Assembly: GCA_001782165.1 (NCBI GenBank)
Contig: MFNV01000009.1
Span: forward strand, 122,283-186,282
Direction of reading: 5' to 3'
Source of the DNA: Candidatus Levybacteria bacterium RIFCSPHIGHO2_01_FULL_41_15
GTDB taxonomy: Bacteria > Patescibacteriota > Microgenomatia > Levybacterales > UBA12049
Length of the DNA: 64,000 nucleotides
Part shown: in pieces, positions 9,963 to 49,160 of the stretch
Numbering within the stretch: the first letter of the stretch is position 1
Layout: the number at the start of each line of letters is the position of its first letter
Translations under genes and position numbers: made by a program
The notes under the pieces: model-generated
What the model saw: only the letters and a program-made list of their open reading frames with translations
What the model was told of the DNA's origin: nothing
Databases searched by the model: none

Positions 9963-11752
9963 TTAGTCAATATGTTTTTTACCGAGAGGCGATCTTCCCG
10001 ATCTGTATCCCAGACACCCCATGGTTCCCAGCTGGCCCAGTTTTCGCGTATTTCACTTGCTTTGAGTATGTTTTGGGTGGGGTTTTTCCAGTTGGACTCG
10101 CAGGCATTTCTCAAAGGAAGGCTTAAAATGTTATCGCAGGACTGATCGCCCCAGGCACCTGCCCCATATGCACCCGAGCAGTGGGCGACTGCATTTATTT
10201 GGAAAAGACCGATGCTGTAGTCGTTGGTTTGGCAATTGTCGTTTATTTTAAATGGATAACCTCCGCTCTCCGACTCGCATATCAAAGATGCGGTAAGGGC
10301 CTTTATCGGATCATTTCCAAAATAGGGCAAAAGATTGGCTACCGAGCAATAACCAGTCCCTTCGTATTGTTGTGTGCATGTGTTGCTTGATGTATTGCTT
10401 GATACAATGCACATTCCAAGTTCCTTGTCTGCCGCAACCCATCCTGGCCGTGTGTCCGTGCTTCCTGCGGGAGCAGATTCTGGATTTGGAATGTCTTTTC
10501 CCATAGAGATATGGACATGATCAATTGCGCTTGATCCAACAATTGTCCCTGAGGGATAAGACCTCCCGGGTTGCAAGCCAGTAAATCCGATGTGGCCTAG
10601 AAATAAAGTCCAGTTCTTGTTCCCTTCTAGATAACTGACAAAAACAAACTCCTTACCGCAGCTTCCATTAACTGGTTTTGTACAGTCATTTTTTTTAAGA
10701 TCAAAACGGTTAGCAAAAACCCAGTTTACACTTTTTCCTTCAATTGCTGGTAGAATTATGTTTTTTCCCTCTGTGGGGACGTCAATTGACTTTGCCCGTC
10801 TCGAGTTTGGGTCGCATTCTACTGGATAATTAGTTCCGCAGTGTCCATTCACAGTATCTGCCTGATATGAACCAAAAGAAACTGTTCCACCTGGAACAGG
10901 GCAGCTTGCAATTGATATAGCCGGATTTGGAGTAGTAGCAGGATTTGCCGACCCGCTACCACCGCCGGTTGCCACGATTATTATTATAACAAAGATAACT
11001 ATTATAAGAATAACTGCAGTAATAATCCATCCCACAGGATTTGATTCTGCAGCGACCACTCCGGTTCCGACGGCAGCTACCCCTCCTGTGGCTGCTGCAG
11101 CACCCGCTCCCGCTCCAACAGCTCCTGCTCCTGCGCCGACTGTTCCCACGCCCACAGCGGCAGTCCCTGCGCCAGCACCTGCTGCTCCGGTCCCTACTCC
11201 AGCAGCACCGACTCCTACTCCAGCTCCCATAGCTGCAGCTTCGCCAGCACCAGCGCCCACGCCTGTAGCAGCTGTGAGGCCTGTTCCTGTACCCACTTCC
11301 AAGCCAGCAGCCGCTCCCACCTCAGCACCTGTGCTAATCCCAACGCCTGCAGCTTCAGCTCCTGCACCAGCGCTAATTGCCTCAACTCCCGCTGACTCTG
11401 CTGTTGCAGTCTCAATAATTGAACCTGCCTCGGTTCCTGCAAGCGGAGCTTCCGTAGTAATTTCTGCCCCAGCGGTTTCAGCGCCAACAGAAGGTTCAAT
11501 GGCTGATTCTTCCGCAACGGCAGTTTCCCCAGGAACCGCAGCTGTTTCAGCTTCTGGGGCAGTTCGGATTTCAGAAGGTGTTTCAACTGCGGTCTCAGTG
11601 GTTTCCTTAATTTCTCCTTTGGTTTTGCCTCGCAGGCGTTTGATAAAATCTACGGCCCTTTTTAAAAACCTATATCTGTCATACCACCTGAAGCCCTTTT
11701 CTATACGACTTTCCTGTCTTTCTTCTTTTGGATTTTCCCCTGTTTTCTCCAT
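9944..11752 (-). CDS. membrane-anchored cell-wall hydrolase: M23/LytM-like + GH23 lytic transglycosylase (VirB1-like), with Ala/Gly/Thr-rich cytoplasmic tail
   Basis: 602 aa. The N-terminal ~230 aa are low-complexity (AG/TG/EA repeats), then one TM (WIITAVILIIVIFVIIIIV). An M23-like block follows (SIDVPTEGKNIILPAIEGKSV ... GHIGFTGLQPG ... HVHISM), then the SLT signature ESESGGYP...YSIGLFQIN. Confidence 0.6.
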   Translation of the reverse strand: MEKTGENPKEERQESRIEKGFRWYDRYRFLKRAVDFIKRLRGKTKGEIKETTETAVETPSEIRTAPEAETAAVPGETAVAEESAIEPSVGAETAGAEITTEAPLAGTEAGSIIETATAESAGVEAISAGAGAEAAGVGISTGAEVGAAAGLEVGTGTGLTAATGVGAGAGEAAAMGAGVGVGAAGVGTGAAGAGAGTAAVGVGTVGAGAGAVGAGAGAAAATGGVAAVGTGVVAAESNPVGWIITAVILIIVIFVIIIIVATGGGSGSANPATTPNPAISIASCPVPGGTVSFGSYQADTVNGHCGTNYPVECDPNSRRAKSIDVPTEGKNIILPAIEGKSVNWVFANRFDLKKNDCTKPVNGSCGKEFVFVSYLEGNKNWTLFLGHIGFTGLQPGRSYPSGTIVGSSAIDHVHISMGKDIPNPESAPAGSTDTRPGWVAADKELGMCIVSSNTSSNTCTQQYEGTGYCSVANLLPYFGNDPIKALTASLICESESGGYPFKINDNCQTNDYSIGLFQINAVAHCSGAYGAGAWGDQSCDNILSLPLRNACESNWKNPTQNILKASEIRENWASWEPWGVWDTDREDRLSVKNILTKCGISF

Positions 11753-11768
11753 AAGTCAATAATGTAAA

Positions 11769-13784
11769 TTAAGTTTTATTAAAAACCGGAGGGGCTTGGG
11801 GCTGCGCAGCTTGCGGTGTAGGGGAGGGAGCTTCGGGGAGAGACTCAGGAGGTGGAGGTTGTTGGGATGGCTGGGAAGGAGCTTGCTCAACAGGATTTTC
11901 CGGAGGGGAAGCAGCTTCCGCCTGCTCCTGCGATTCTTTTTGCTGGATCAATTCCTGAGGGTTTGAGGTTATTATTGTGTGCTCAAAGGGTGCTGCAATA
12001 ACTTTTATCACAACATGACTTTGTCCTGCAAAAAACAAACCTTCTCCTACATCTGATGAAAGAAGAAGCTCTTTTTCTCCTTGTGAAAGGTAAAAAACTT
12101 TTGAGATAAGATCTATTTCTGTAGGAGACTGTTTAAGAAGCATCTGTATTGATGAATTTGATAAAACTGCATTTCCGTAGTCGGTCGATAAGAAATCCTG
12201 AACATCCTGAGTTGCGGTTGTTAAAGCAAGATAATATTTTCGAGCACGTTTTGCGATTCCATAAACAAAAGACGCTGAATCTTCATATTTCATTATATAC
12301 CAGGCCTCATCTAAGACAAGAAGTCTTTTTTTAAGGCTTTTTCTGATTCTTGTCCAGACAAAATCCAAAATAATGTGCATGGCAATGGGGCGAAGTTCAT
12401 CCTCCAAAGCCTTAATTGAAAAAACGGTGAATGGGTTTGTAATATCAAAATTAGACTGCTGATTGAAAATTCCGGAGAGGCTCCCCTTTATAAATTTTTC
12501 AAGCCTTAAGGCAAGTCCTTTTGCTGTCTGATCCTCCATACCAATTAGAACTTTATATAAGTCTTCCATCAAAGGAGGCTGATTTTTTTGAGTCGAAGGA
12601 TCTGCAGTTACCCCTTTTTGTCTATAGGTTTCAACAAGAGCGCGGTCCAAGATTGCATCCTCGCCTGCAGACAGCTCTCCCATGACTATCCGCAAAAGCC
12701 CATGAAGGGAGAGTATTTTAAGCCCCAGCTCATTTTCGCCTTCCTCATAAAGGCCCGAGAGGTCAAATGGATTTATCTTAATCGGATCGGATGGAGTAAA
12801 GGATACATGTTCTCCGCCCAGTGTTTTGGAAAGAGCTTCGTATTCCCCTTCAGGGTCTATTATTATAACTTCGGTCCCAAACATAAACTGTCTTATGGCC
12901 TCAAGTTTTATCAAGTATGACTTTCCTGCACCCGATTTGCCTAATACCACTTCATTTGCGTTTTCCAAAGAATATCTGTCAAAAACTATTAGTGATCCAT
13001 TCTGCTCATTTATTCCATACATGATTCCCTTATCTTGAGTAAGAGTTGCAGATGTGAAAGGGAAAGTAGAGGCAAGAGAAGTTGTATCCATGTTCCTTGC
13101 AATGTAAAGCTTGTCAACACTTTGTGGAAGGCAAGATTTGAATCCTTCTTCCATTTGAAGTGTGGCAGGTTTTGTTATAAGAAGAATAGAGGATAAGGTT
13201 GATGTGAGTTTTTTTGAGGCCACATCAAGATCCTGTATCGTTTCTGAAAAAAGTGTTATGTAAAGACCGAACTGGAAGAATCTTTCGACTCCCTTTGCCA
13301 GTTGTTCCTGAAGCGAAAGAGCATCTTCCAAAGCTGCCTGAACCTTGGGATCAACTATCTTTCCCTCCTCTGTCTGTGACGAGATTGTTGCTTCCATCTC
13401 GGCAATCTTTCTTCGGATATCAGAAAGCACGTCATTTGAGGAAGCAGGGTAGCAAAACATCGAAACATTCATTGAATGATCAAAATCAATAAGAGGAGAA
13501 AGCCAATTGGGCGAAACAAATCTTGGATAACCTACAACAAAAAAGGTCCTGTAATAAAAATCACCTACTCTTATAAAGTTGAAATCTACTTCAACCGAAG
13601 GTGGGGCAATAATATCAAGAAGGGAGGATGTCCCCTTTTCAAGAATTTTGATTCCCTTTGCTTCTATTGTTTTTGCACCCTGCCTGTCCATTTGTCCTGA
13701 GCTCAGGGTTGAAGGACCGGCAGGCAGATCCTGCAAAGGAGTTTGATTATTGGTTTTTTGTTTTTTGAAATTTAAGAATTTCAT
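11769..13784 (-). CDS. virB4: VirB4/TrbE/CagE-family type IV secretion ATPase
   Basis: 671 aa with Walker A VVLGKSGAGKSYLIK, Walker B LLVLDEAWYIM, and an upstream CagE_TrbE_VirB-like region (RVGDFYYRTFFVVGYP). The C-terminal tail is Pro/Gln-rich. Confidence 0.85.
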   Translation of the reverse strand: MKFLNFKKQKTNNQTPLQDLPAGPSTLSSGQMDRQGAKTIEAKGIKILEKGTSSLLDIIAPPSVEVDFNFIRVGDFYYRTFFVVGYPRFVSPNWLSPLIDFDHSMNVSMFCYPASSNDVLSDIRRKIAEMEATISSQTEEGKIVDPKVQAALEDALSLQEQLAKGVERFFQFGLYITLFSETIQDLDVASKKLTSTLSSILLITKPATLQMEEGFKSCLPQSVDKLYIARNMDTTSLASTFPFTSATLTQDKGIMYGINEQNGSLIVFDRYSLENANEVVLGKSGAGKSYLIKLEAIRQFMFGTEVIIIDPEGEYEALSKTLGGEHVSFTPSDPIKINPFDLSGLYEEGENELGLKILSLHGLLRIVMGELSAGEDAILDRALVETYRQKGVTADPSTQKNQPPLMEDLYKVLIGMEDQTAKGLALRLEKFIKGSLSGIFNQQSNFDITNPFTVFSIKALEDELRPIAMHIILDFVWTRIRKSLKKRLLVLDEAWYIMKYEDSASFVYGIAKRARKYYLALTTATQDVQDFLSTDYGNAVLSNSSIQMLLKQSPTEIDLISKVFYLSQGEKELLLSSDVGEGLFFAGQSHVVIKVIAAPFEHTIITSNPQELIQQKESQEQAEAASPPENPVEQAPSQPSQQPPPPESLPEAPSPTPQAAQPQAPPVFNKT

Positions 13785-14446
13785 ACCTGACTCCCCATTT
13801 TTATAATAGGGGTTTTAAGCTCATCGGTTATTTGATTAGTTTCGATGAGGGATCCGTTGAAGATCTCATAAAAAAGTTTGACCAGCTCTTCCTTCTGAAG
13901 AGTTTTTGCGCGAAGACCTAATCTTGCAAGCTGTGAGTGAACGGAGTCTCCCTTGGAATGAAGAGCTGCCTTTGCCTCTTCAAAAAAGGAGTCTTCGGAT
14001 ATTTGACCGGGCATAGCTTTTTTGGCTGCCCCAACCCCCTTTTCAAGATAGGAATATGGAATAACAATATAAAATTTTTTGTCAAGTACCGTATTTACTT
14101 TGACCAGCTCTCTTATAAAATCCCGGTAAAGCCTTATCTGGGAAGATAAAAGCTGATTTGTTGACCCCTGAGCCTGCTCTTCCAAAAGTTTTAAATAAGA
14201 GGAGATATCAAGCTTTTTGCTTCTTATAAATATCTGAATCGGGAAAGATAGGGAATTAAGAAGAGAAGCATAGGAAAAAACTTTTGTGTCCTGTTCTTCT
14301 TTTGAAAGAAGAGAGAAATTCGTGGCATTGACCTCAATTATAAAACAGGCATTTTTACCCGATAATATAACTATGTCCTCTTCGATTCCCTCAATTTCTA
14401 TAAATTTTTGCGTTGTTGCTCTCTTTTTTTGGGCAGTTTTAGTCAT
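13781..14446 (-). CDS. cytoplasmic T4SS-associated protein, unknown (resembles a VirB4 N-terminal domain)
   Basis: 221 aa with no TM. It is translationally coupled (4-nt overlaps) between the PrgI-like gene and virB4. The segment IEIEGIEEDIVILSGKNACFIIEVNATNFSLLSKEEQDTKVFSYASLLNSL resembles the N-terminal region of VirB4/TraC proteins. Confidence 0.35.
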   Translation of the reverse strand: MTKTAQKKRATTQKFIEIEGIEEDIVILSGKNACFIIEVNATNFSLLSKEEQDTKVFSYASLLNSLSFPIQIFIRSKKLDISSYLKLLEEQAQGSTNQLLSSQIRLYRDFIRELVKVNTVLDKKFYIVIPYSYLEKGVGAAKKAMPGQISEDSFFEEAKAALHSKGDSVHSQLARLGLRAKTLQKEELVKLFYEIFNGSLIETNQITDELKTPIIKMGSQV

Positions 14447-15654
14447 GATTTTTGAACGGGATTAAATAATTCTCTTCTAAGTTCTTCTCTTTTGTCAATT
14501 GAAATTATTTCAAGAGGCATTAAAACTTCACCTCTGGCTTCTATCTCAATAGTATCAAATTTATGTTCTCCCTTGGGATCTTCAAAAAATATAGTGTAAA
14601 CTCCGTTACCTAAGGGGGTTGCCGAAGCAAATTGACCTAAGACATTTGTTTTGAATGCTCTTACAGGATTTCCTTCCTCGTCTTTCACCTCAACAAGTAT
14701 ATTAGGAAGAGGATTATTTCTTGAGTCTTTTGCTATTCCCATAACCAAGTTTGGAACATCGGGAATAAAAGGGAGTCCTGCAGTTTTACTCAATTCTCTC
14801 GGAATTCTTCTTGCATGTTTTGTTTCAGGCTTGGGAGTTATAGTTGAGGGACTATAAATATTTTTTCCCTGCATCTTAAGTTTTTTTCTAAGCTCTATTA
14901 TTTGATTCTCCAAAATTTGTTTTTGTGAAGTCACCTCGCTTAAGACCTTTTCAATCTCAAGAATTTTTTGGTGGGCCATTTGGTATTGTTCTCCCGTCTC
15001 CTGTTTTTTTTCCAGATCCTTGGCTTCCTCAAGCTCTTTCTTGAGAACATCAGCCTTTTTGTCAAGCTCTTTTTCTTCCTCTTTTTTTTTGCCTTCGTCT
15101 GTTAAATTTACATTCTCTCTGATCTGATCTTCAAATATCTTTTCATAACCTCCCAAATTCTCCGATATGTCAGTTGGGGATCCTTTGCTCAAAGAAAGAA
15201 GAGAATTTAAAAAATTAAGCTCTTTTTCATCCAATTTATCTTTTGGTTTTTGGGGAAGATTTTTTAAAAACTCTTTAAGTTTTTGGGTGGAATCGGATGA
15301 AGTCATAAGCTTAGATACTGTTTGTACTTGACTTTCCTTGGGTGGCTTGGGGAACCACATATGACCACCTATTTTCTGATATATATACTGAGTTGGATTA
15401 AATAAAGCTTTTATGTAATTTGAAATCATAAGATCAAACGGCCGACCCTCAATAGGAACAAACGCCGCTCCCACCCCCAGGCCTACAAAAAGAAGAACGA
15501 GGGGGATTTTTATAAGGATAAAAATCGGGAGCGCAAAAGTTATCCAGCCTAGGACAACTCCTGTCGCAAGATAGGCAAATTGCTTAATGGTCATGTCCCC
15601 TATCAGCTTAAACTGAAAACCTGTAATATCTTGGGGAATAGGATGATTTTCCAT
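14443..15654 (-). CDS. PrgI/VirB3-like membrane protein fused to coiled-coil and C-terminal beta-sandwich domain
   Basis: 403 aa. N-terminal region (MTIKQFAYLATGVVLGWITFALP... then a second TM) resembles PrgI/VirB3-type small T4SS membrane components located directly upstream of VirB4. A K/E-rich coiled coil follows, and the C-terminus looks like a carboxypeptidase-regulatory-like fold. The true start is probably the Met at MTIKQ. Confidence 0.4.
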   Translation of the reverse strand: MENHPIPQDITGFQFKLIGDMTIKQFAYLATGVVLGWITFALPIFILIKIPLVLLFVGLGVGAAFVPIEGRPFDLMISNYIKALFNPTQYIYQKIGGHMWFPKPPKESQVQTVSKLMTSSDSTQKLKEFLKNLPQKPKDKLDEKELNFLNSLLSLSKGSPTDISENLGGYEKIFEDQIRENVNLTDEGKKKEEEKELDKKADVLKKELEEAKDLEKKQETGEQYQMAHQKILEIEKVLSEVTSQKQILENQIIELRKKLKMQGKNIYSPSTITPKPETKHARRIPRELSKTAGLPFIPDVPNLVMGIAKDSRNNPLPNILVEVKDEEGNPVRAFKTNVLGQFASATPLGNGVYTIFFEDPKGEHKFDTIEIEARGEVLMPLEIISIDKREELRRELFNPVQKS

Positions 15655-15964
15655 AATTTGAAAAGCAACTAGTTCCTAACCACTAGCGGCTAGTTGCTAT
15701 TTTTAACAGTGTATAACGTGAAAAAAATGCTTTCAAGACAGTCAAAATAGATCAAAAAAGAAAAAAAAGAGGCTAGTGTGAAAACTGAATAGTAAATCAC
15801 AAACTCTAAATAACAAATCCTAAATAATATTTAATTTCAAATGCTCAAAATCCAAAAAATTATTATATTCGAATTTTATACTTTGAATTTATCCTTCGAC
15901 GCTACTCAGGATGGTGAGCTTGTCGAACCATTTGGAGCTTGTAATTTTGGATTTAAGATTTAGT

Positions 15965-16342
15965 CTAATTGCAGTTTCCGAAGCCGAATTGTTTTATGCA
16001 GGAGACGCCAGTCAAAGCGCTTATAAAGTTTATTATTGCAAATGAAAGGAGAATTACAACAAGACCGATAATCGCATACGTAAGAGTTTCCCTTGCTTCT
16101 TTTACTTTATCCTCTGTTCCGCCTGACCTTATGTATTTGATTCCCGACCAGATGATGAAAAAAAGAGCTACTATTCCTCCTCCGACAAGCGCCCAGTTAA
16201 TAACATTCTGAAACACAGTCGGAATACACTGAAGAGTTGCGACGCTGTCTTTTACGCAATCTCCCCAGTCAACACCGGGAATGGTAATTCCGCCCCCTCC
16301 TCCGCCTGGAGGCGGAGGCAGTTTGGCAAGAAGTTTATCCAT
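15965..16342 (-). CDS. VirB2/TrbC-like T4SS pilin paralog 1
   Basis: 125 aa with two TM helices flanking IWSGIKYIRSGGTEDKVKEARETLTYAIIGL, a motif shared by all four paralogs. The N-terminus has a PPPPGGGGGG run. Confidence 0.6.
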   Translation of the reverse strand: MDKLLAKLPPPPGGGGGGITIPGVDWGDCVKDSVATLQCIPTVFQNVINWALVGGGIVALFFIIWSGIKYIRSGGTEDKVKEARETLTYAIIGLVVILLSFAIINFISALTGVSCIKQFGFGNCN

Positions 16343-16401
16343 AGTTTTAGATTAGCAAGAAAATTTTAAAAAAACAAGGAAAGATAGAGAAACTCTAAAT
16401 T

Positions 16402-16800
16402 TTACTGGAGCTTTAATGTGGGAAGAGTGAAGGTGGTTATGGTTTTACCGAGGAAGAATCCGACGACAAGATTCAAAATGAAGTATGCCAAAAAGACTAT
16501 TACAAGGCCGACGACTGCGGCAACAATCGTGTTTCTTGCAGCTTCGACATTAGTTTTATCTCCACCCGACAGAATCCACTTAATCCCTCCCCAAATTAAG
16601 AACCCTAATGCAATAAGAACCGCAAGTATGAAAAGAAGGGTAATAACATTTCCGACTACGTTCCCAAAATTACTTGATGTGAGTTTGCAAAGACCGGCGA
16701 AGTCGCCTGTGGGACAAGTGTCAACTGTATCAGCAAAAGCCAAAGCTGGGGAGAGAAGATAAGATGAAAATGCGGCTGTTGTAGCAATTAATTTTTTCAT
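16402..16800 (-). CDS. VirB2/TrbC-like T4SS pilin paralog 2 (with signal peptide)
   Basis: 132 aa with signal peptide MKKLIATTAAFSSYLLSPALAFA and the pilin core LIWGGIKWILSGGDKTNVEAARNTIVAAVVGL. Confidence 0.65.
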   Translation of the reverse strand: MKKLIATTAAFSSYLLSPALAFADTVDTCPTGDFAGLCKLTSSNFGNVVGNVITLLFILAVLIALGFLIWGGIKWILSGGDKTNVEAARNTIVAAVVGLVIVFLAYFILNLVVGFFLGKTITTFTLPTLKLQ

Positions 16801-16887
16801 CTTTAATTAAATGCTATATAGATTTTCACAGTTTGTCAAGCCCCGATTTAACAATTGAGCAATGGAACAATAGAGCAATTGGATTTT

Positions 16888-17196
16888 CTAGAAAATCCTT
16901 ATATTAAAGAATCCGAAAATAAAGTTTATCATAAAAAATGAAAAAAAAGCAATAATCAAACCTACAACAGAATAAGTCAGTCTAAGTCTTGCCTGTTCAA
17001 TTCTTTGTTTATCTCCGCCTGATGTTATCCATTGAATTCCTGCCTGAATCATATAAAAAAGAGCAAGAAAAATCGCCGCAAGAAGAAGCAAAGTAACTCC
17101 TCCCTGAATGATTTTTGAAATGTTCCCTCCTGTTGGAACCTCGCTAGGCGGCTCAATTTCCCGCCCTCCTATTGTAATAGCTATTTTATTTAACAT
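16888..17196 (-). CDS. VirB2/TrbC-like T4SS pilin paralog 3
   Basis: 102 aa with core MIQAGIQWITSGGDKQRIEQARLRLTYSVVGL. Confidence 0.6.
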   Translation of the reverse strand: MLNKIAITIGGREIEPPSEVPTGGNISKIIQGGVTLLLLAAIFLALFYMIQAGIQWITSGGDKQRIEQARLRLTYSVVGLIIAFFSFFMINFIFGFFNIRIF

Positions 17197-17250
17197 TTCT
17201 TATTTATCATTGATCATTAAAATCGTAAATTATAAATCATCAATCACGTT

Positions 17251-18180
17251 TTATTTTATAAAGTCTGGAATGCGTAAAATGTTAAATCCGATTACTTGAA
17301 GAATCACAAAGGAGAATATTATAAAAACAAGCCCTATTATCGCGGCAATTAGCTGATCCCGCGCTGCCTCCAAAGCTTCAGGTTTGCCCCGCGCTGCTAT
17401 AAGCTGATATCCCGAATAGATTATGAGAAGAAGTGCCAGTCCTCCTGAAAGAGAAAGAATAATACCAAAGATTGATTTTATAAGACCCGATGGATCTGTG
17501 CCAATATCTATTCCAAGGCCGGTTGTTACAGAAGTGCAGATTTTTATTTGTTTTTCATCTGTGGTTAAATTCCCTTCTTTATCAAATCCCTTGGAACAGG
17601 GTGGAGGAGGGGGGCTGGGATCAGGTTCTTCGGGTTTTGGCTTATCTGACTGAGGAGAGCAAATTGTATCATATTTCTCAATTTCCAACGTCCATGTCTG
17701 CAGAATTGTTTTTTTAAACTTATCCTTATCAAGGTTGGCTACTAACCCGCATGAATAAACCTTACACTCAGAATTAGCTGGATCGCAGAGTTGGGAATAA
17801 AGACATCTGTCATTATCAGTTAAACCAGAATCATCTCCGCATTTGCCATCAGAAGATATAGGAGGAAGACATCTATACACTCCGTCATTTTCCCTGCAGT
17901 TAAATTCCTGACATCCTGCATCTGTGCAGGGCTGGGTTGACAGGCAAAACGGCGAATTTTCATCGTTGCATTCTATAGGGGAGTTATAAGGATTCGTTTG
18001 GGGGGCAGGGCCTCCGCCTGTATCTCCTGTCTCTACTGCCAAAGAGGGCGGGGGTTTGAAAATTAAAATAAGGAGAATTATTACAACAACTCTTAGAATT
18101 TGTCCCACAATTTTATAGTAGACAAGTTGAGAATACTTTGCAAGAGCCGTCAAGCTATGCTTGGAATTTTCAATTTTCAA
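17251..18180 (-). CDS. Cys-rich ectodomain fused to C-terminal VirB2/TrbC-like pilin domain
   Basis: 309 aa. An N-terminal TM anchor is followed by a ~170-aa domain with ~22 Cys and a PPPPP linker. The C-terminal 70 aa are a pilin core (IIYSGYQLIAARGKPEALEAARDQLIAAIIGL). The start is a TTG embedded in a 7-nt x4 tandem repeat, so the 5' boundary is uncertain. Confidence 0.55.
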   Translation of the reverse strand: MKIENSKHSLTALAKYSQLVYYKIVGQILRVVVIILLILIFKPPPSLAVETGDTGGGPAPQTNPYNSPIECNDENSPFCLSTQPCTDAGCQEFNCRENDGVYRCLPPISSDGKCGDDSGLTDNDRCLYSQLCDPANSECKVYSCGLVANLDKDKFKKTILQTWTLEIEKYDTICSPQSDKPKPEEPDPSPPPPPCSKGFDKEGNLTTDEKQIKICTSVTTGLGIDIGTDPSGLIKSIFGIILSLSGGLALLLIIYSGYQLIAARGKPEALEAARDQLIAAIIGLVFIIFSFVILQVIGFNILRIPDFIK

Positions 18181-18266
18181 TTTTCAATTTTCAATGAATT
18201 TTTAATGTTTCAAGCTTTAAATTTTAAAAACTTAGATTTGATTTCAAATTTCAAATTTAAAATTAT

Positions 18267-19619
18267 TTATGGTGTAAATTTTATTCCTCTTCCCTTAATT
18301 GTTTGCAAGTGAGATGGATTATTGGGGTCGTCTTCTATTTTTTTTCGAAGGCGAAAGATTAGCTGATCCAGAGCTTGATCGGTTACTCCTTCTGTTGATT
18401 TTGAATTTTTCCACACGGCGTTTATTACTTCCTCCCTTTCTACAATTTTATCTTTATTCTCAATCAGGAACTTAAGGAGCTTAAATTCGGAAGAGGTCAG
18501 AATATCAGAAAGGATACTATCTCCCTTTTTTATCTCGTTGGTGATAGGGTCAAACGAAATGACTTGATTACCCAATTGTTCGATTACCGTGATGAATTTT
18601 TCAAAAAGGGGAATTGAGATTTTACTGTTTTCTATTAATCCAACGTTTTGTAAATAGCCACTAGAAATTAGTTGGTTAGCAATTAGTGATTTCTGTTCGG
18701 AAGGTGTTAAGGAATACAAAATCTCATAAAGAGAACCTCTTATCGTTTTTTGCTCAAGCAAAAAACTCTGTAACCCTATTCTGGTTGCTAGTTGCCAATT
18801 GCTAGTCGCTAATCTTGTCTCAAGACAAAGCCTTGTTAATTTTCCGTGGCCTGCGGTTAGTGAAATTATTTTGTTAGTTAGTTTTTCGTTTATTCTTTTA
18901 CCGCTTACTTTTTCAAGGTATGAGATTCGGAAATCAAGACCGGGCTTGTCAAATAGCGGTAAATAAACGATGTTTCCTGCCAAAAATTCATAAAAATCCG
19001 AGAAAAGCATTGGTTCTATCAAATCCTCAAGGGGTCTATTAAGAGAAAAAACAACAGAGAATCTGTATTTTGCCCTGTTTCTCAAGATTCTAAGATTGGC
19101 AAAAAATTCAGATGAGAGCATTGGTACATATTCTTCAAATCTGTCAAACAGAAAGACTACTGTAAGTTCTTTCTCAATACAAAGGTAATCAATTGCTTTT
19201 TTAAGGCCCCCAAACAAAACCATCTCGTCATTGGTCAGAAGCGATTCTTTGAAAATCTTATCCATGGTTTCATGTTCCTGCATTTTTCTTTCTCTTAATG
19301 AATCAACAAGTGAAAGGAAGATGAATTTTGTTGCCTCAAATAAGGGCTTTTTTCTAATCTCCGAAAAATTTAAGAGGACAAAATGAAACCATTTCTGGTC
19401 TTCTCCTAAATGTTTTAACCGGACAGTGCGGTTATAAGATAAAAGACCCAAAAGATTTGATCTTCCAACCCCGGGAAGACCAATAAGCTGAGCCGATTTT
19501 CCTTCCTTTGCAAACCTTAAGATTTTTTCTATTTCATCAAATCTTGAATTTTCAGGGTATAATGATTCGAAATGAGCCAGTTCACTACCATCGACCATTG
19601 ATGATTTATTATTTACCAT
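18267..19619 (-). CDS. putative transcriptional regulator: N-terminal P-loop NTPase-like (STAND/AAA-like) + C-terminal OmpR/PhoB-type winged helix
   Basis: 450 aa. A degenerate Walker A (LIGLPGVGRSNLLGLL) and hhhhD (VVFLFDRFEE) sit at the N-terminus. The C-terminal ~95 aa (SSEFKLLKFLIENKDKIVEREEVINAVWKN...ALDQLIFRLRKKIEDDP...LQTIKGRGIKF) is a clear trans_reg_C wHTH. Confidence 0.55.
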   Translation of the reverse strand: MVNNKSSMVDGSELAHFESLYPENSRFDEIEKILRFAKEGKSAQLIGLPGVGRSNLLGLLSYNRTVRLKHLGEDQKWFHFVLLNFSEIRKKPLFEATKFIFLSLVDSLRERKMQEHETMDKIFKESLLTNDEMVLFGGLKKAIDYLCIEKELTVVFLFDRFEEYVPMLSSEFFANLRILRNRAKYRFSVVFSLNRPLEDLIEPMLFSDFYEFLAGNIVYLPLFDKPGLDFRISYLEKVSGKRINEKLTNKIISLTAGHGKLTRLCLETRLATSNWQLATRIGLQSFLLEQKTIRGSLYEILYSLTPSEQKSLIANQLISSGYLQNVGLIENSKISIPLFEKFITVIEQLGNQVISFDPITNEIKKGDSILSDILTSSEFKLLKFLIENKDKIVEREEVINAVWKNSKSTEGVTDQALDQLIFRLRKKIEDDPNNPSHLQTIKGRGIKFTP

Positions 19620-19694
19620 GTTTGTTAAATTACAAATTCAAAATTACAAATAACAAATAATTGCAAAGTTATAAATACAAAATTCAAAACAACT

Positions 19695-20057
19695 TTATCT
19701 ACTTTTTTCTAAGATTGCAGCAAAAATTTTAACAAGCTCGGTAGTTTCTTGCAATAGTGGAGTAATCTTATTCTTGAGTTCCGGGTTTGCCTCTTCGATC
19801 AATTGTAACCAGTAAATTGTTTCTTTTCCTTCTTTTCTGCAGATTCTAATTCTAAATGAGAAATCTTTCTTTGTTTCTGTTTCATTTGCTTCTCGATAGT
19901 TAGCACCCATAGAAGTTCCGGAACGAATAACTTGATCGCACAAATTAAAGTTAATTGTGTTTTTCGGCAAGTCTTTAGCTAAGTGAATAATTTTTTTTCC
20001 AAATTCAAGCGTTCTATCTTCTAAATCGTACTTTTTATTATTTTGGTTATTTGACAT
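19695..20057 (-). CDS. four-helix-bundle protein (23S rRNA intervening-sequence protein family)
   Basis: 120 aa; the motif ...QVIRSGTSMGANYREANETETKKDFSFRIRICRKEGKETIYWLQL... is typical of the PF05635/TIGR02436 family. Confidence 0.6.
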   Translation of the reverse strand: MSNNQNNKKYDLEDRTLEFGKKIIHLAKDLPKNTINFNLCDQVIRSGTSMGANYREANETETKKDFSFRIRICRKEGKETIYWLQLIEEANPELKNKITPLLQETTELVKIFAAILEKSR

Positions 20058-20180
20058 TTTAATTTATTTGGAACTTGTAATTTTGTACTTGTAATTTTCC
20101 TTACTACGTAAGGATATTGTAATCTTCTTGAAAGCTAATTATCAAGCGCTTCGGCTTCGCTAAGTGTAAACTTCCCTCGT

Positions 20181-22961
20181 ATGAAAGAGTTTGATTTGAC
20201 AGGCAGAGCTAATCGCCCTACACTTGAAGTGAAGGGAGATATTTTTATGTCAGAACCCGGACAAAGAGAACAGCCGCCAAAACAGCTCGAACCTGCCTCT
20301 GGAGCTGGTGGAGGATCTCCGCCAGAAAAACCACCAATCACTACATCCGGAGAAGCAAATGGCAATGGGGAAGATTCTGGTGAACAGGCGCCAAATATAA
20401 AGACCGGCCCTGCGAAATGGAAAAACAAAGATAATGATCAGCCTATTGTTGTTACAGAGTATGCAGGTAAAGGTCCAGACGGTAAAGATTATGTCAATAT
20501 TGAAGGAAGCGAAACCAGTGTTCCTCTTGATGAAATAGAATATCCACAAGAAGAAATTCCAGCTGCAGGCGCAGGCGGAGGAGAGCCTCCCGAAGAACCC
20601 CCAGAGGTAGTAACTGCAGAAGAACCTGGGGAGAGTGACGGTGGTGAGGATCGTGGGGAAATTAAAGAATATATAAAGGCATTAAATAAGTTATTGTCAG
20701 ATGAAGAAGTAAGAAGGGTATTGATTTCGGATAACCCAGACTTTGATCAGCTCCCTCAGCTAGAAGAATTTATAAGAAAGTACATGAGTCCTGCAGACAG
20801 GAGCGGAAAGATAGGCCATTTTGCTAGATTTGTTACCGGAAAAGATAATGATTTTTCTTCTACATCAAAGAAGCTTATATTCGAGCGTTTACTTGAAAAA
20901 ATTATAGGCATGACAGATAAAACTCCCGATAGGCCATATCATGCTGATTCGGGCAATATATATGTTTCATCCAACTTACAAGAGCTACTTGAAGTAGCAA
21001 GGGCAAATTTGGCTGAAGATTTTCCATATTTCGGAAACCTTGCTTATGTAAGAGAAGTTGCTCATGAATTGAATAGAAATCTTAAATACGGGGAGCAATA
21101 CAAAAAATATGTAACAGAAAGTTTGCGTACCGGGGGACTTAATTTTATGCATAATAGAATTGCAGGTGTAAGTGCAGTTATAAGAGAGTATGAAAGAATA
21201 AGTTCATACAGAATAAGACAAGTAAAAACCTGGTTTTCAGAAAAGGATATAAGGGCAATAGACAGTGAGGTAGAAGAGATGATAAAAGATCATTCGAGAG
21301 AAGAAATGAAGATAGGTAATAGGAAATTATCAGATTGGGAGATTGAAAGGGCTTTAAAAATAGGTAAAATTCTCTTTGCAGGAAGCCAAAGACTGGCCGC
21401 GTATGCTGCTGCAGGGGATCTTCCTCACGACGCGTTGCTTACTGGACGATTTGGATCTGTTCCCTATGAATATATAGCAAGATCTTTATTTCCATTCAAA
21501 ATGACTTCCCCAAGGTTTTTTGCTGGAGCAGGAGGTTCAAGAAGATACATGGAGAGAATATTTGAAGAACAAAAGAAAGATAGCCCGTGGTTTGATGAGA
21601 AAGAAAAAAAATCAAAGCTTTATTCTCTCTTTGGACTTGATGAAAGAACCATCCTTATGGATAGTTGCGGAGCTATGGATTCTCAGACTCAGGCATGGAG
21701 AGCGGAAATGATGTTTTTGGGAGCCATTACGATGAACATAGACGGAGAACACGTTAACTTACTGGATTACTTGAATGAGTTTGCTGTTCTACACGGTGGA
21801 AAATCAGGAGATCCTAAGGATCAGATTCTGGGTGGAAGGGGCGTTGATGAGAAGGAAAGACCAAATTTTTCAAAAGACGTTAGAAATGTAGTAATGGGTC
21901 AAAGATTATATTTATCTAATCTTGCTCGATACGGAAATTTTGATGACGTCCTAAAAGCGGATATCTGGCAAAAAATTAGTCTTCTTACTCCATCAACAAT
22001 AGCATCTGTGGTTCCCAGAGCCATCGGCAAAGAAGATGAGAAAATATGGGAGCAGATGCGATATAAACTATATGCCGCTGAGAATAAAAGAATAAACAAT
22101 GATTCAGTAAGGTACAGGAAAGGGTTAACAAATGATGATTTAAAGGGCGAAAATGAAAAATTCAGTAAGGTTTTAGAAACTGTAAAAAAAGATGTTTGGA
22201 CAGAAGGAGATTTTGATACAATTTTGGAATATATGGGGATGGGAGAGCTGAAGCTAGAGATAGATGAGAAGAAATTACTGAAAAAAATAATAACAGCTGG
22301 TATAGAAGAGTCAGAGAAGCTTGGTAGGGCAAAACTTCCCTTTGCGTTTGCGATTGTCGATGCGCCTGAAGTAGCATGGTCTAAAACAGAGGATGGGACT
22401 GGAGGACTTGAGGATGAAGATTTGCTAAGGATACTTTTAAGTGATCAGGAATCATTTTCCAAGGCATGGACAGAAATGAACGGTCTAATAGAAAACCCAA
22501 CCGCAGGTTTACGAGAACATACAGCAAAAGCAGTTGAAGGAATAGGAATGGTAATAGGCAGAAAAAGCGCACAGGAAATAATTCGCCCATTTATAATAGC
22601 TTATATTAAGATGGCATCTACTACGCCTTCTTCAGAATGGATAGGCGATTTTCAAAAACTTCTTAGGCAAGCTACGTCAGAAATGGAAAGGTATTATAGA
22701 AATTCCCACATATCGTGGGATGCTAAAGAGAGAGAAATAACTCTTGAAGGAATGTCTCAAGATGGCTCAATCTCTGATGATATTTCTGAAGGAAATATAT
22801 CTGATCTAGATAAAGTTAAGAAGAAAACAAAATCGACCAGAAGAGCAACTTTTCTTAGAATGGCAAGATTAATAATTATGTTACTAGGTCCGGAGGCAGG
22901 TATATCATTTCTTAAACTTTTTGTGCCACAAGATTTACTAAACTCTTTACAAAAAAAATAA
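20181..22961 (+). CDS. large cytoplasmic protein of unknown function with disordered repeat-containing N-terminus
   Basis: 926 aa with no TM and no recognisable catalytic motif. The N-terminal 170 aa are acidic/Pro-Gly rich with a duplicated AGAGGG(S/E)PPE(K/E)PP unit. The start is possibly the downstream Met (MSEPGQ). Confidence 0.45.
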   Translation: MKEFDLTGRANRPTLEVKGDIFMSEPGQREQPPKQLEPASGAGGGSPPEKPPITTSGEANGNGEDSGEQAPNIKTGPAKWKNKDNDQPIVVTEYAGKGPDGKDYVNIEGSETSVPLDEIEYPQEEIPAAGAGGGEPPEEPPEVVTAEEPGESDGGEDRGEIKEYIKALNKLLSDEEVRRVLISDNPDFDQLPQLEEFIRKYMSPADRSGKIGHFARFVTGKDNDFSSTSKKLIFERLLEKIIGMTDKTPDRPYHADSGNIYVSSNLQELLEVARANLAEDFPYFGNLAYVREVAHELNRNLKYGEQYKKYVTESLRTGGLNFMHNRIAGVSAVIREYERISSYRIRQVKTWFSEKDIRAIDSEVEEMIKDHSREEMKIGNRKLSDWEIERALKIGKILFAGSQRLAAYAAAGDLPHDALLTGRFGSVPYEYIARSLFPFKMTSPRFFAGAGGSRRYMERIFEEQKKDSPWFDEKEKKSKLYSLFGLDERTILMDSCGAMDSQTQAWRAEMMFLGAITMNIDGEHVNLLDYLNEFAVLHGGKSGDPKDQILGGRGVDEKERPNFSKDVRNVVMGQRLYLSNLARYGNFDDVLKADIWQKISLLTPSTIASVVPRAIGKEDEKIWEQMRYKLYAAENKRINNDSVRYRKGLTNDDLKGENEKFSKVLETVKKDVWTEGDFDTILEYMGMGELKLEIDEKKLLKKIITAGIEESEKLGRAKLPFAFAIVDAPEVAWSKTEDGTGGLEDEDLLRILLSDQESFSKAWTEMNGLIENPTAGLREHTAKAVEGIGMVIGRKSAQEIIRPFIIAYIKMASTTPSSEWIGDFQKLLRQATSEMERYYRNSHISWDAKEREITLEGMSQDGSISDDISEGNISDLDKVKKKTKSTRRATFLRMARLIIMLLGPEAGISFLKLFVPQDLLNSLQKK

Positions 22962-22963
22962 AA

Positions 22964-24694
22964 TTATCCTACGCCGAATCTTCGACCGAATGCTCGTAGT
23001 TTTCCGACTTTGCCGTAACTTACCCTTCCTGTTGCTTGATCATAACCTGCCAATCTATATTCCTCAGAACCGGCTATAGTTTGACCTACACCCTTAGCTA
23101 CAGAAATTGGGTAACCTGCTCCCGCTCCAACTGCGGCACCGATTGAGGAGAGGTCGATTTTGGGTGCCTTGAGAGCTTCTCTTAATGTTGTTACAATTCT
23201 TGGCGCAGTCAATATGATTCCAAGGGCAATTATTGCGCCGAAACGCTCTCCATTGGGGTTTCCTATAAAAGGCGGCACGAACATGTCTCCCCCTCCTGCA
23301 TCAAAAAGATGCATAAAAGTCTCTCCCAGAAGGAAAAGAACAAGAGTTGCCGGGAAAGCCGCAAGGTTTGAAATAAGACTTCTGAGCCAGGAGGTAAAGC
23401 TGATTGTACTTCCCGGGAAAAGTCCTGCGACAATCCAGAAAGGCGCAAATACTATGTCTATGAGAATCATTATATAGGCCTGAAGAAGGATAAACCAGAG
23501 TCTAAACAGCGCCCAGAGAATTGCAATAAGAATCACCAGAAATGCAATTATACCGGCCAACCCTCCGATTACGATCTTCCCAGCATAGTTTGTAAGGTCG
23601 CACGCTCCTCCTCCAAATAACCCAAAACCAGAAGTTATAAAATTGAGGGCTCCGCTTAAAAAACCTCCCACAACAGGAAGACTTTCAAAAATCGCACAAG
23701 TACTCCCCGCAACCGCACCAATAGGCCCGGCAAGTATGAAACCAAGTACTGCGGTTATAATACTGCCTAAATAAGTAGTAAAAAGACCTGGGGTGAGACT
23801 GGCTATTATATTACCCACACTATAAGAAGCATTAAACGCAACTGTAAAAATATTAAATGTATCATGCGCAACACTAAAAGGAGAAGTATATAGCCGCGGA
23901 ACATCGTGTTCAAAGATATTTAGGATCAAATATAGGGCGACATACATAAGGTCAATAAGAAAAGCTGCAATTGCAAGAGAGAATGTCACAAGAAGTATCC
24001 CTATAATTAATTTGGGTATTTGGTTCTGCAAAGTCATGACAGTTCGCGGATCTATTTTTACCCTAAGCATTATTGCAACTCCTATAATCACAAAGACAAG
24101 GACAAACAGAAGATATACAATGTCTCTGAATTTACTCCAAAGAGGAATAAGAGGAGAGACTCTGGAGACGCCAAGTCCTGTATTCTGGGCATAAGTACTT
24201 TTTGCTATCCCAAAATTTTGAGCAAGATCTTTCATATAGTCTGCCGCGTGAACAGGAGCCGTATAGAGCATACCGATCATGCCTCCCATAAAACCCACTG
24301 CTCCTCCACCGCCTTCAACAAAGCCGATACTTCCGGTCTTAGGATCAACACCGAGGCATTTTTGTGAGACATTTGTCGGATCAATTCCCGAAAGCTGGCA
24401 GACAAGAGCGGACATTACTTCTATCATCACACTTTGGGTATAAGTATGAAGGTTTTTTGGGACATCAGGATTTGTGTTGGGGGCAGCGTAGGGATTGGTT
24501 TGGTTATTTTGGTAATTGGGTAGATTGGAGTTCGGAATGCTTACTGTCTGAGCAAAAGTTGGGGATTTAAAAATTAAGAATGAAAAAATAAAAAATAAAA
24601 AAACCAAAATAAGATACGGGCCCCACTTCGTTAAAACTTCCACCGTCGCTAAGGCTTTGGCGGACAAGTCGCGGGGCAAGGCAGGAAGTCTCAT
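22964..24694 (-). CDS. polytopic membrane protein, VirB6/TrbL-like candidate
   Basis: 576 aa with a signal/TM start and then ~8-10 TM helices with Gly-rich loops. Its size and topology fit the VirB6/PrgH-class channel subunits usually encoded with VirB4 systems. Confidence 0.4.
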   Translation of the reverse strand: MRLPALPRDLSAKALATVEVLTKWGPYLILVFLFFIFSFLIFKSPTFAQTVSIPNSNLPNYQNNQTNPYAAPNTNPDVPKNLHTYTQSVMIEVMSALVCQLSGIDPTNVSQKCLGVDPKTGSIGFVEGGGGAVGFMGGMIGMLYTAPVHAADYMKDLAQNFGIAKSTYAQNTGLGVSRVSPLIPLWSKFRDIVYLLFVLVFVIIGVAIMLRVKIDPRTVMTLQNQIPKLIIGILLVTFSLAIAAFLIDLMYVALYLILNIFEHDVPRLYTSPFSVAHDTFNIFTVAFNASYSVGNIIASLTPGLFTTYLGSIITAVLGFILAGPIGAVAGSTCAIFESLPVVGGFLSGALNFITSGFGLFGGGACDLTNYAGKIVIGGLAGIIAFLVILIAILWALFRLWFILLQAYIMILIDIVFAPFWIVAGLFPGSTISFTSWLRSLISNLAAFPATLVLFLLGETFMHLFDAGGGDMFVPPFIGNPNGERFGAIIALGIILTAPRIVTTLREALKAPKIDLSSIGAAVGAGAGYPISVAKGVGQTIAGSEEYRLAGYDQATGRVSYGKVGKLRAFGRRFGVG

Positions 24695-24773: not shown

Positions 24774-24861
24774 TGCGGAGGAGAGGAGATTCGAACTCCT
24801 GATACGGTTGCCCGTAAACCTGCTCTCCAAGCAAGCGCCATAGGCCACTAGGCGACTCCTC
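24774..24861 (-). tRNA. tRNA-Ser (anticodon GGA)
   Basis: Manual fold: acceptor GGAGGAG/CTCCTCC, anticodon loop TTGGAGA, long variable arm, T-loop TTCGAAT. CCA is not encoded. Confidence 0.8.
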
Positions 24862-24965
24862 CAAAATTAAATTCCAAAATTCGAAATCTTGAATCCTAAA
24901 TAAATCCTAAACCCAAAATTACAAATTTCAAACGATTGGACAATTTAGCAGTCCTTATTATATCA

Positions 24966-26081: not shown

Positions 26082-26082
26082 G

Positions 26083-26166
26083 CGGAGGGTACAGGATTCG
26101 AACCTGTGAGGGATTACTCCCACGAGTTTTCGAAACTCGCGCCTTAAACCGCTCGGCCAACCCTCC
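26083..26166 (-). tRNA. tRNA-Ser (anticodon CGA)
   Basis: Acceptor GGAGGGT/ACCCTCC, anticodon loop TTCGAAA, long variable arm, T-loop TTCGAAT, discriminator G. Confidence 0.8.
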
Positions 26167-26181
26167 AATTTTATTAAATTG

Positions 26182-26255
26182 CACCCTCGAAAGGATTCGA
26201 ACCTTCGACCTCGACGTCCGCAACGTCGCGCTCTATCCAACTGAGCTACGAGGGC
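26182..26255 (-). tRNA. tRNA-Arg (anticodon GCG)
   Basis: Manual fold: acceptor GCCCTCG/CGAGGGT (G1-U72), D-arm GCTCAGTTGGATAGAGC, anticodon stem-loop CGACG-TTGCGGA-CGTCG, 5-nt variable loop, T-loop TTCGAAT. Confidence 0.6.
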
Positions 26256-27665: not shown

Positions 27666-27892
27666 AAAACCATTCTAACATGCCAAAGATATTGCTTCAA
27701 TGATTTGATCCCGGGGATCATGGCAGAGGAGTATTATTTTCTGTTGGAGTTTAAGATTTTTTCTAGTCGATTTCTTATGTTTACCAACTGGCGGTGGGAG
27801 TGAGATTCACTTCGGCTCCGCTCAGTGTAAACTTCTCATCCCATTTACACTTCGCCAATCTCAGAACATAAAGTCCTGAGCTTGTCGAAGGG

Positions 27893-27979
27893 CGGTGGGA
27901 GTGAGATTCGAACTCACGGCGGCATTGCTGCCACAATGGTTTTCAAGACCATCCGGATAAACCACTCCCGCATCCCACC
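27893..27979 (-). tRNA. tRNA-Ser (anticodon TGA)
   Basis: Acceptor GGTGGGA/TCCCACC, anticodon stem-loop ATGGT-CTTGAAA-ACCAT, long variable arm, T-loop TTCGAAT. Confidence 0.8.
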
Positions 27980-27984
27980 AAATG

Positions 27985-28072
27985 CGGAGAGGGTGGGATT
28001 CGAACCCACGCGAGCCTTGCGGCTCAGGGGATTAGCAATCCCCCGCAATGGACCAAACTATGCGACCTCTCC
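27985..28072 (-). tRNA. tRNA-Ser (anticodon GCT)
   Basis: Acceptor GGAGAGG/CCTCTCC, anticodon stem-loop GGGGA-TTGCTAA-TCCCC, long variable arm, T-loop TTCGAAT. Confidence 0.8.
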
Positions 28073-33356: not shown

Positions 33357-33408
33357 GATAATAAATTAAAAATTAAAAGTGAAAATTTAAAAATTTACGA
33401 AACTTAGA

Positions 33409-49068: not shown

Positions 49069-49160
49069 AACAATTCAAAATTCATAATTTAGAGTTCAGA
49101 ATTTAAATTTAAAGTTTAGGATTCTCTTAATTCTTAATTCTGCATTCTAGATTCTAAATT

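Follow-up and report, generated by a model that had tools for sequence, protein, structure and literature searches.

The gene examined here, REG, encodes a putative transcriptional regulator of 450 residues and lies at positions 18267–19619 (−) of a 64-kb stretch of Levybacteria genomic DNA, referred to below as the window; (−) and (+) denote its two strands. The gene is backed by a listed open reading frame (ORF), by homologs, and by a structure model, and has an alternative ATG start at 19598. The window starts close to the origin of replication, dnaA being at 6862 and dnaN at 8344. The gene order on the minus strand is SLT_3 (lysozyme-like), VirB4/TraG-type ATPase, orf221, PrgI-like, four T4SS_pilin genes, REG, and a 23S-rRNA-IVP gene. 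Beyond the IVP gene come a large plus-strand ORF without annotation and then a minus-strand gene for a 576-residue membrane protein (mem576). The machinery genes of this type IV secretion system (T4SS) occupy 9462–15654 (−) and were assigned by Pfam matches and synteny; they encode the PrgI-like protein (403 residues), orf221, the VirB4/TraG-type ATPase (671 residues), the SLT_3 protein (602 residues), and orf166. The four T4SS_pilin (VirB2-like) genes at 15965–18180 (−) all match PF18895.

T4SS genes and pilin arrays are widespread and origin-proximal in Patescibacteria, and they have been reported to be essential for epibiotic growth in Saccharimonadia (PMC12102498). The same study describes MPF-FATA-like T4SSs with VirB2 arrays near dnaA in Patescibacteria, and the locus in the window is of this type. 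The study names no regulator of these systems, and our literature search found none for the T4SS of Levybacteria.

Conservation of the REG locus

An original prediction, made from the sequence of the window, had noted that REG adjoins the pilin array. This adjacency is maintained in related genomes. The synteny set comprised 49 Levybacteria-type loci including the window (individual loci are given below by their L numbers), of which 43 had enough flanking sequence to be judged. The pilin array lies no more than 3.5 kb from REG in 42 of these 43, with REG co-directional in 37 and inverted within the same slot in five. REG stays in position, with mem576 on one side and the pilin array on the other, despite variable genes, namely IVP cassettes and the large opposite-strand ORF. 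In the single Curtissbacteria ortholog that was found, REG abuts the VirB4 operon and the pilin array is not adjacent. That the linkage has persisted at protein identities of about 50% and despite local rearrangements speaks for a functional connection of REG with the locus. No paralogs of REG were found within the window. In L013, L024, L027, L035, L043, and L106, REG has the opposite orientation to both of its flanks; either REG alone is turned around or, in some cases, the IVP gene has turned with it.

Domain architecture and structure model of REG

A Pfam search with REG returned Trans_reg_C (PF00486) at residues 374–447, with 67.9 bits against a cut-off of 26.2 and an E-value of 8.3e-19, and the match spans positions 6–76 of the 77-position model. 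This confirms the OmpR-type winged helix-turn-helix (wHTH) domain that had been proposed for the C terminus. In the structure model, the OmpR/PhoB-type wHTH occupies residues 350–450 (18270–18572 (−)) and shows the expected fold, that is, an N-terminal β-sheet, three helices with a long α2–α3 loop, and a C-terminal β-hairpin wing. The recognition helix, GVTDQALDQLIFRLRKKIE, is almost invariant across orthologs, as would be expected if the target sites are conserved. The NCBIfam and PDB sequence matches of REG comprise only the DNA-binding halves of OmpR/PhoB family proteins (RpaB, PhoB, DrrB, RegX3, and KdpE). The response-regulator matches in NCBIfam are confined to the C-terminal 80–125 residues of REG and score far under the family cut-offs, the best stretches beginning at residues 324–380. 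Pfam gave no match in REG for a receiver domain (Response_reg) or for a BTAD domain. No solved structure matched the N-terminal module by sequence, the listed matches covering only the wHTH.

The AlphaFold2 model, based on 72 homologs, is of high quality (predicted local distance difference test 89.7, predicted template modeling score 0.87) and places a P-loop core of five strands first, with a helical lid next, then a winged-helix domain, and last an effector domain of canonical OmpR type. The P-loop nucleoside triphosphatase (NTPase) core, with five parallel strands, comprises residues 17–222 (18954–19571 (−)), and the helical lid, with its conserved GGHGKLT motif, forms residues 223–345 together with the winged-helix domain (18585–18953 (−)). 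H258, in the lid region, is invariant among homologs. REG thus combines the NTPase core, helical domain, and winged-helix domain that are typical of signal transduction ATPases with numerous domains (STAND) and other AAA+ proteins. The same three-part build is found in the archaeal ATPase structure 2qen, with which 289 residues could be aligned. REG contains no sensor or repeat domain, and its 450 residues leave no room for one.

REG and a large family of uncharacterized proteins

Close relatives of REG are numerous. More than 1,200 matches were found, the top 120 of which have 59–100% identity, and those that carry a name come from Levybacteria or Patescibacteria; AAA_35 is carried by only one close homolog. 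In a scan of one genome per species, 49 loci with full-length REG were recovered, 48 of the Levybacteria type (46–72% identity) and the one from Curtissbacteria (37% identity); these and the window make up the 50 orthologous loci referred to below. Two more full-length relatives, with 22–24% identity, come from Chloroflexi (Anaerolineae, Caldilineaceae; L050/L051).

More distant relatives were collected by phmmer, using the N-terminal 350 residues of REG against 1.84 billion representative sequences. The search yielded 512 clusters, and the distant ones (22–31% identity) are nearly all 420–480 residues long, with a canonical GxxGxGKS motif and a C-terminal wHTH. Among 77 distant representatives, Pfam detected Trans_reg_C in 66, AAA_16 in 55, nSTAND1 in 47, and AAA_35 and NACHT in 13 each. 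Alignments of REG with this distant family run end to end over 434 columns with an hhalign probability of 100%. The suggested check of the N-terminal domain against AAA_16, NACHT, and NB-ARC thus had a mixed outcome, with no Pfam match in residues 1–350 of REG itself and AAA_16 and NACHT present in its end-to-end homologous distant relatives. The distant members occur in varied gene neighborhoods that are not T4SS-related, which indicates that the T4SS linkage is specific to the Levybacteria clade.

These data also bear on the proposal that REG has an inverted architecture. Its domain order is indeed opposite to that of SARP/AfsR and CadC/ToxR proteins, but it is standard in the larger family (66 of 77 with Trans_reg_C at the C terminus) and parallels that of MalT/LAL regulators. 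As judged from these alignments, the order ATPase-then-wHTH is the fixed architecture of a sizeable uncharacterized family and no one-off inversion. We found no literature on this architecture, the searches returning only papers on Streptomyces SARPs and on STAND defense proteins, and in databases the REG family is annotated only as "helix-turn-helix domain-containing protein".

The closest counterparts of REG are the uncharacterized proteins that combine nSTAND1/AAA_16 with Trans_reg_C. They resemble it in length and domain order and likewise have the GGHxxL lid motif and a C-terminal wHTH. Unlike REG, they have a canonical GxxGxGKS motif, and their Walker B strand is usually followed by D-Q or D-E. 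Among characterized systems, REG shares its domain order with the MalT/LAL regulators, in which the DNA-binding domain comes C-terminal to a STAND ATPase. The output of MalT is a LuxR-type helix-turn-helix (HTH; GerE/LuxR), whereas that of REG is an OmpR-type wHTH (Trans_reg_C). MalT also has a large C-terminal SUPR/TPR-like sensor arm that binds maltotriose, whereas REG, at no more than half the size of MalT, has no sensor and deviates from the canonical Walker A. By this analogy, REG would work like a miniature MalT/LAL-type STAND regulator in which an OmpR/PhoB output replaces the LuxR HTH and the sensor arm is missing.

SARP/AfsR and CadC/ToxR proteins have the OmpR/PhoB-type wHTH in common with REG, and AfsR-type proteins, like REG, join it with a STAND (NB-ARC) ATPase. 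However, the wHTH is N-terminal in these proteins, followed by BTAD in SARPs and by a membrane anchor in CadC/ToxR, and C-terminal in REG; the absence of BTAD and the opposite domain order indicate that REG is not a SARP. OmpR/PhoB response regulators resemble REG in that their wHTH, from the same family, is C-terminal, and they bind direct repeats phased by 10–11 bp at or near promoters. REG lacks their receiver domain and phospho-acceptor Asp, having a P-loop NTPase module in the receiver's place, and is therefore not a response regulator. The functionally uncharacterized archaeal ATPases PABY2304 (2qen) and SSO1545 (2fna; Pfam ATPase_2) have 13–16% identity to REG; unlike REG, they have no OmpR-type output domain and possess a canonical Walker A. 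A search with PADLOC gave no credible defense match for REG, orf926 (the large plus-strand ORF), IVP, mem576, orf221, or orf166, the sole listing being orf926 to MkoB (E 0.0089, 13 bits, no qualifying stretch), so REG does not appear to be an anti-phage STAND protein such as Avs.

The nucleotide-binding pocket

The Walker A segment of REG, GLPGVGRS (residues 47–54; 19458–19481 (−)), has Arg53 at the position of the canonical Lys and deviates from GxxxxGK[ST]. The substitution, which had been picked out as GVGRS in the original prediction, is present in REG but is not fixed in the clade, where K and R alternate. Position 53 is Arg in 111 and Lys in 10 of 121 top database matches; across the 50 orthologous loci, Lys is common (about a third) and one locus has Gln. 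Ser54 is replaced by Ala, Asn, Tyr, or Thr in several orthologs. On a neighbor-joining tree of the orthologs, Lys and Arg at position 53 are interleaved, which implies several switches between them.

The Walker B segment VVFLFDRFEE (residues 154–163; 19131–19160 (−)) has the extended form hhhhD-x-x-E-E, and a sensor-1-like SLNRP (residues 192–196; 19032–19046 (−)) is located at the end of strand 4, which spans residues 187–193 in the model. The Walker B acidic residues and the sensor-1 Arg of STAND/AAA+ proteins are thus found in REG (D159, E162/E163, and R195). Among homologs, G50, G52, R160, and E162 are invariant, and P49, S54, N55, D159, E163, and R195 are at least 90% conserved. The description of the N terminus as a degenerate P-loop NTPase therefore needs qualification: the NTPase fold and the Arg are there, but only Walker A is degenerate, Walker B and sensor 1 being near-invariant.

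In alignments with the wider family, the Walker A of REG corresponds to GxxGxGKSN and its Walker B to lfD-x-F-D, and the residue directly after the Walker B Asp (+1) varies between Q, E, R, H, and S. We considered a loss of the catalytic Glu (D159-R160 for D-E) and dropped this idea because +1 is variable family-wide and a conserved acidic pair is found at +3/+4. We take the E162/E163 arrangement to be like the extended Walker B of NACHT proteins (hhhhDGxDE), and SLNRP is presumably like the NACHT sensor-1 motif (TSRP); these likenesses serve as leads and not as tests. Judging from the order of motifs in STAND/NACHT proteins, SLNRP may act as sensor 1.

The pattern of conservation suggests that the pocket of REG is still used for binding of a nucleotide or phosphate, whereas selection for hydrolysis may be relaxed or gone. 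If REG instead were a catalytically active ATPase, cycling like MalT and other STAND proteins, Arg53 would still have to allow hydrolysis and an ATP/ADP cycle would reset the switch. The near-invariance of the remaining pocket motifs (GxPGxG, S54, D159, E162/E163, and R195) speaks for such activity, as does the Lys that is kept in about a third of the orthologs and in essentially all distant relatives. We nevertheless consider it unlikely, since repeated alternation of K and R, one Gln, and replacement of the Mg-coordinating Ser by Ala, Asn, Tyr, or Thr are unexpected if catalysis is required. Moreover, changing the Walker A Lys of P-loop enzymes to Arg normally abolishes hydrolysis, while often sparing binding.

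Promoters and repeat elements

Conserved direct repeats were found upstream of REG, outside the two spacers in which the original prediction had suggested looking for operator sites. They form part of a promoter-like element and candidate auto-operator, P_reg (20111–20150 (−)), which in the window reads TTGATA-18-TACAAT (hexamers at 20145–20116). Its spacer and −10 region enclose the heptamers CTTTCAA and ATTACAA at a distance of 11 bp. The element has the consensus CTTGATAT-N3-CCTTACAA-N4/5-ATTACAAT, with two CTnACAA heptamers 11 bp apart. A position weight matrix built from 25 ortholog sites gave one match in the window (score 38; next best below 8) and, in 39 of the 50 loci, one match per locus, upstream of REG. 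With a sub-matrix for the repeat pair, the P_reg site itself is the only place in the window that scores 15 or more. Conservation is limited to the −35, the heptamers, and the −10, such that the spacer positions CCTnACA are kept and the flanks are not, and self-similarity peaks at an offset of 11 (0.54, compared with 0.21–0.37 elsewhere). A generic promoter scan recovered P_reg as well. P_reg is located 30–110 bp from the REG start in loci without an IVP insertion, and a P_reg-like build, CTTGAC-N5-CCTAACAA-N3-GCTAACAA, precedes the 37%-identical Curtissbacteria ortholog. A second copy of P_reg is found before mem576 in L009 and before a tRNA gene about 1 kb upstream of mem576 in L025.

A second repeat element, P_prgI, is a candidate activator site upstream of prgI at about 15711–15767 (−), within the spacer 15655–15964, the other of the two places suggested for a search for direct repeats. 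It consists of TTTGATC, TTTGACT, and CTTGAAA followed by TTTTTCACGTTATAC. The three TTTGA-type heptamers are in roughly 10-bp phase, and the third doubles as the −35, separated from the −10 by a mere 15 bp or so; the sequence TTTTCACGTTATAC that comes next is invariant. A distal TTTTCAC copy is found upstream, near 15790. P_prgI is conserved in 17–18 loci and unique in the window, and its self-similarity peaks at an offset of 10. The repeat geometry of P_reg and P_prgI matches that of sites bound by OmpR/PhoB proteins. For the conserved prgI leader, no Rfam family matched at E ≤1, and folding gave no signal of RNA structure (z-score −0.49). A CTAG-rich hairpin with a 9-bp stem, GCAACTAG..CTAGTTGC, can be drawn in this leader (15655–15700), and CTAG-rich repeats (ctagtcgctagtggctagttgc and alike) occur elsewhere in leaders of REG or mem576 (L002, L003, and L004).

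The first pilin gene has a promoter of its own, P_pil (18106–18143 (−)), in which TTGCAA (18143–18138) and TACTAT (18120–18115) are 17 bp apart and are followed, after 6 nt, by a GTG (18108–18106). In most genomes, the arrangement is TTGCAA-17-TACGAT directly after the REG stop codon, with a GTG or ATG 6–8 nt on, and it is kept in about 30 orthologous loci. Given this conserved promoter position and the roughly 30 orthologs, the listed TTG start at 18180 is probably too far upstream, and the first pilin is likely to start at GTG 18108. Its mRNA is predicted to be leaderless or nearly so. The promoter of mem576 is plain and conserved (TTGACA-17-CAAACT). No convincing terminator was seen after REG.

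A search for operator repeats had also been suggested for the spacer between REG and the pilin genes (18181–18266). Tandem Repeats Finder detected only AT-rich 7-bp tandem repeats there (18165–18264 (−); GAAAATT four times and AAATTTG three times), which are generic and not conserved between genomes. Similar 7-bp arrays occur at 17220, 19627, 33363, 44798, 44880, 49072, 49125, 52661, and 62287. We rejected these heptamers as operators because they recur in at least 10 other spacers of the window, are missing from most orthologous spacers, and flank mobile-looking IVP cassettes. The arrays extend over 17220–17246, 19627–19689, 33363–33395, 44798–44918, 49072–49163, 52661–52692, and 62287–62317, with 7-bp units such as AATTTTC, AAATTCA, AATTGAA, and AGTTCAG and similar ones. 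The array at 44798–44918 lies inside a listed ORF of 380 residues (44597–45739), and this ORF may therefore be mis-called.

A candidate regulator of the T4SS and pilin locus

Taken together, we think it probable, though far from certain, that REG serves the T4SS/pilin locus of Levybacteria as a lineage-specific transcription factor and belongs to an uncharacterized family of small, STAND-like proteins that lack sensor repeats. P_reg and P_prgI would be its binding sites, as inferred from their conservation and repeat phasing. The NTPase module may act as a switch in which a nucleotide or another ligand governs oligomerization, with little or no hydrolysis, and in REG oligomers the wHTH domains could line up along the phased repeats in head-to-tail fashion, in the manner of OmpR/PhoB domains. 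By covering the spacer and −10 of P_reg, REG would repress its own gene; at P_prgI, where the repeats overlap a −35 with poor spacing, its binding could activate the machinery operon. Control of the pilins, if any, would be indirect, by read-through from P_reg or via a site that escaped detection; read-through is conceivable because no convincing terminator follows REG.

Several observations weigh against this interpretation. Within residues 1–350 of REG, no Pfam family reaches threshold. No repeat element is visible at P_pil, and since the pilin array thus has its own promoter without a repeat site, direct control of the pilins by REG is unsupported; what stands of the earlier suggestion of a dedicated regulator is its plausibility from conserved synteny. 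In the window, no P_reg-type sites with a score of 15 or more were found upstream of the pilin genes, prgI, or mem576 using the repeat-pair sub-matrix. The half-sites differ, being CTTACAA in P_reg and TTTGAyA in P_prgI, so that one protein may not bind both. A comparison of recognition-helix variants (LIF versus IIY) with half-sites (CTTACAA versus CT[ACT]ACAA) gave a hint of covariation that is not decisive. Among loci with an inverted REG, P_reg is lost in L024, L027, L035, and L043 and stays in its old orientation in L013 and L106, where it would drive transcription antisense to REG. Autoregulation through P_reg is therefore not indispensable. Finally, the exact degenerate P_reg pattern occurs in 25 stretches of a metagenome collection, 17 of which are linked to REG and eight of which are not, meaning that the motif is not strictly exclusive to REG.

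The non-REG matches comprise seven near-identical copies (L089–L091, L096–L098, and L102) and L086. Here the motif is part of an element that is unrelated but has a comparable promoter build, and by a rough estimate the number of such unrelated matches is about that expected by chance among real promoters. The contigs concerned are GC-richer and lack REG; after the motif CTTGATATTAACCTTACAGGAACTTTACAAT come another promoter-like site and then a small HTH gene (..TLQEWADYLGVNRNTVLARLKKY..), as in L096, L102, and L086. In the seven-copy group, a sigma-70-like gene comes after the small HTH gene (seen in L096 and L102).

Some of the points above would also fit a REG that is an autoregulated transcription factor with its targets elsewhere, its position merely reflecting a gene order near the origin that is frozen in the small genomes of Levybacteria. 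Within ±10 kb, no strong P_reg-type site exists other than that at REG's own promoter, P_pil and the mem576 promoter resemble plain promoters, and the whole region (dnaA, dnaN, and T4SS) is syntenic anyway. Against this stands the slot between mem576 and the pilin array, which REG holds even where it is inverted alone (five loci) and while its variable neighbors come and go. In addition, the Curtissbacteria ortholog still adjoins the VirB4 operon though the pilin array does not, and the clade-specific nature of the linkage is apparent from the unrelated contexts of the distant family. We regard targets elsewhere as rather improbable. It is very improbable indeed that REG is a DNA-handling accessory that recognizes or recruits substrate DNA in place of the relaxase or coupling protein that Patescibacteria T4SSs reportedly lack, because its fold is not FtsK/VirD4-like, the conserved repeats have promoter geometry, and its DNA-binding domain is a canonical OmpR/PhoB effector domain, which to our knowledge functions only in transcription factors.

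If REG is a transcription factor of the T4SS/pilin locus, one may speculate on its signal. An inability to make nucleotides has been reported as a general trait of Patescibacteria and would probably extend to this epibiont. The catalytically disabled STAND module might sense the NTP/NDP pool by binding alone and switch the T4SS and pilus via the P_reg and P_prgI repeats. We put this forward as a long shot; if true, a single protein would couple nucleotide supply, in a minimal feedback loop, to the acquisition machine, which presumably serves host contact or uptake of DNA and nutrients.

We found no earlier report that links REG to the T4SS of Patescibacteria or describes the K/R interchange or the set of conserved promoters and operators. 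The results provide a candidate dedicated T4SS regulator for one order-level lineage, the Levybacteria, which has no cultured member, along with three to four conserved promoters of the locus and two candidate operators with phased repeats. They also point to a large uncharacterized family of minimal STAND-type transcription factors with OmpR-type output, in which the natural interchange of Lys and Arg in Walker A could be used to test whether such switches need hydrolysis. While conceptually unsurprising, the results offer a testable handle on how a machine that is considered central to epibiotic life may be regulated.

IVP cassettes and neighboring genes

The gene between P_reg and REG (19695–20057 (−)) belongs to the 23S rRNA IVP/four-helix-bundle family (PF05635, Pfam E-value 7.8e-17). 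It is flanked by imperfect inverted repeats at 19627–19692 and 20032–20097 (I1, 66 nt, 71% complementary), which are composed of AT-rich 7/14-bp units. An IVP-family insertion between P_reg and REG is found in the window and in about 15 other loci. Homologous IVP cassettes differ in position within the T4SS locus from genome to genome and may lie on either side of REG, between pilin genes, or ahead of prgI; the loci with cassettes are L001–L005, L018, L019, L023, L024, L026, L030, L036, and L038. From its flanking repeats and scattered positions, the IVP unit has the appearance of a small cassette that is mobile and leaves scars of heptamer repeats.

On the far side of REG, mem576 (22964–24694 (−)) encodes a polytopic membrane protein and has its own conserved promoter, described above. 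The protein has no Pfam match, and its gene lies beside REG in 42 of 49 loci. VirB6 homologs are scarce in Microgenomatia, which has been ascribed to extreme sequence divergence (PMC12102498), and mem576 is a candidate for a divergent VirB6 homolog. The 926-residue ORF between REG and mem576, orf926 (20181–22961 (+)), belongs to no Pfam family and has an internal duplication in its N-terminal part (..GAGGGSPPEKPP.. and ..GAGGGEPPEEPP..). At the same position, other genomes have ORFs of 1,000–1,250 residues with only 19–24% similarity. orf926 is a fast-evolving gene in a fixed T4SS slot and may encode a substrate or surface protein.

The GC content rises to 0.50 at 10001–12000, against a background of 0.33–0.42, in a region covering the SLT_3 gene (9944–11752). 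Five tRNA genes lie at 24775–24862, 26082–26255, and 27890–28072, four for tRNA-Ser with different anticodons and one for tRNA-Arg, and one of the tRNA-Ser genes is located directly upstream of the mem576 promoter.

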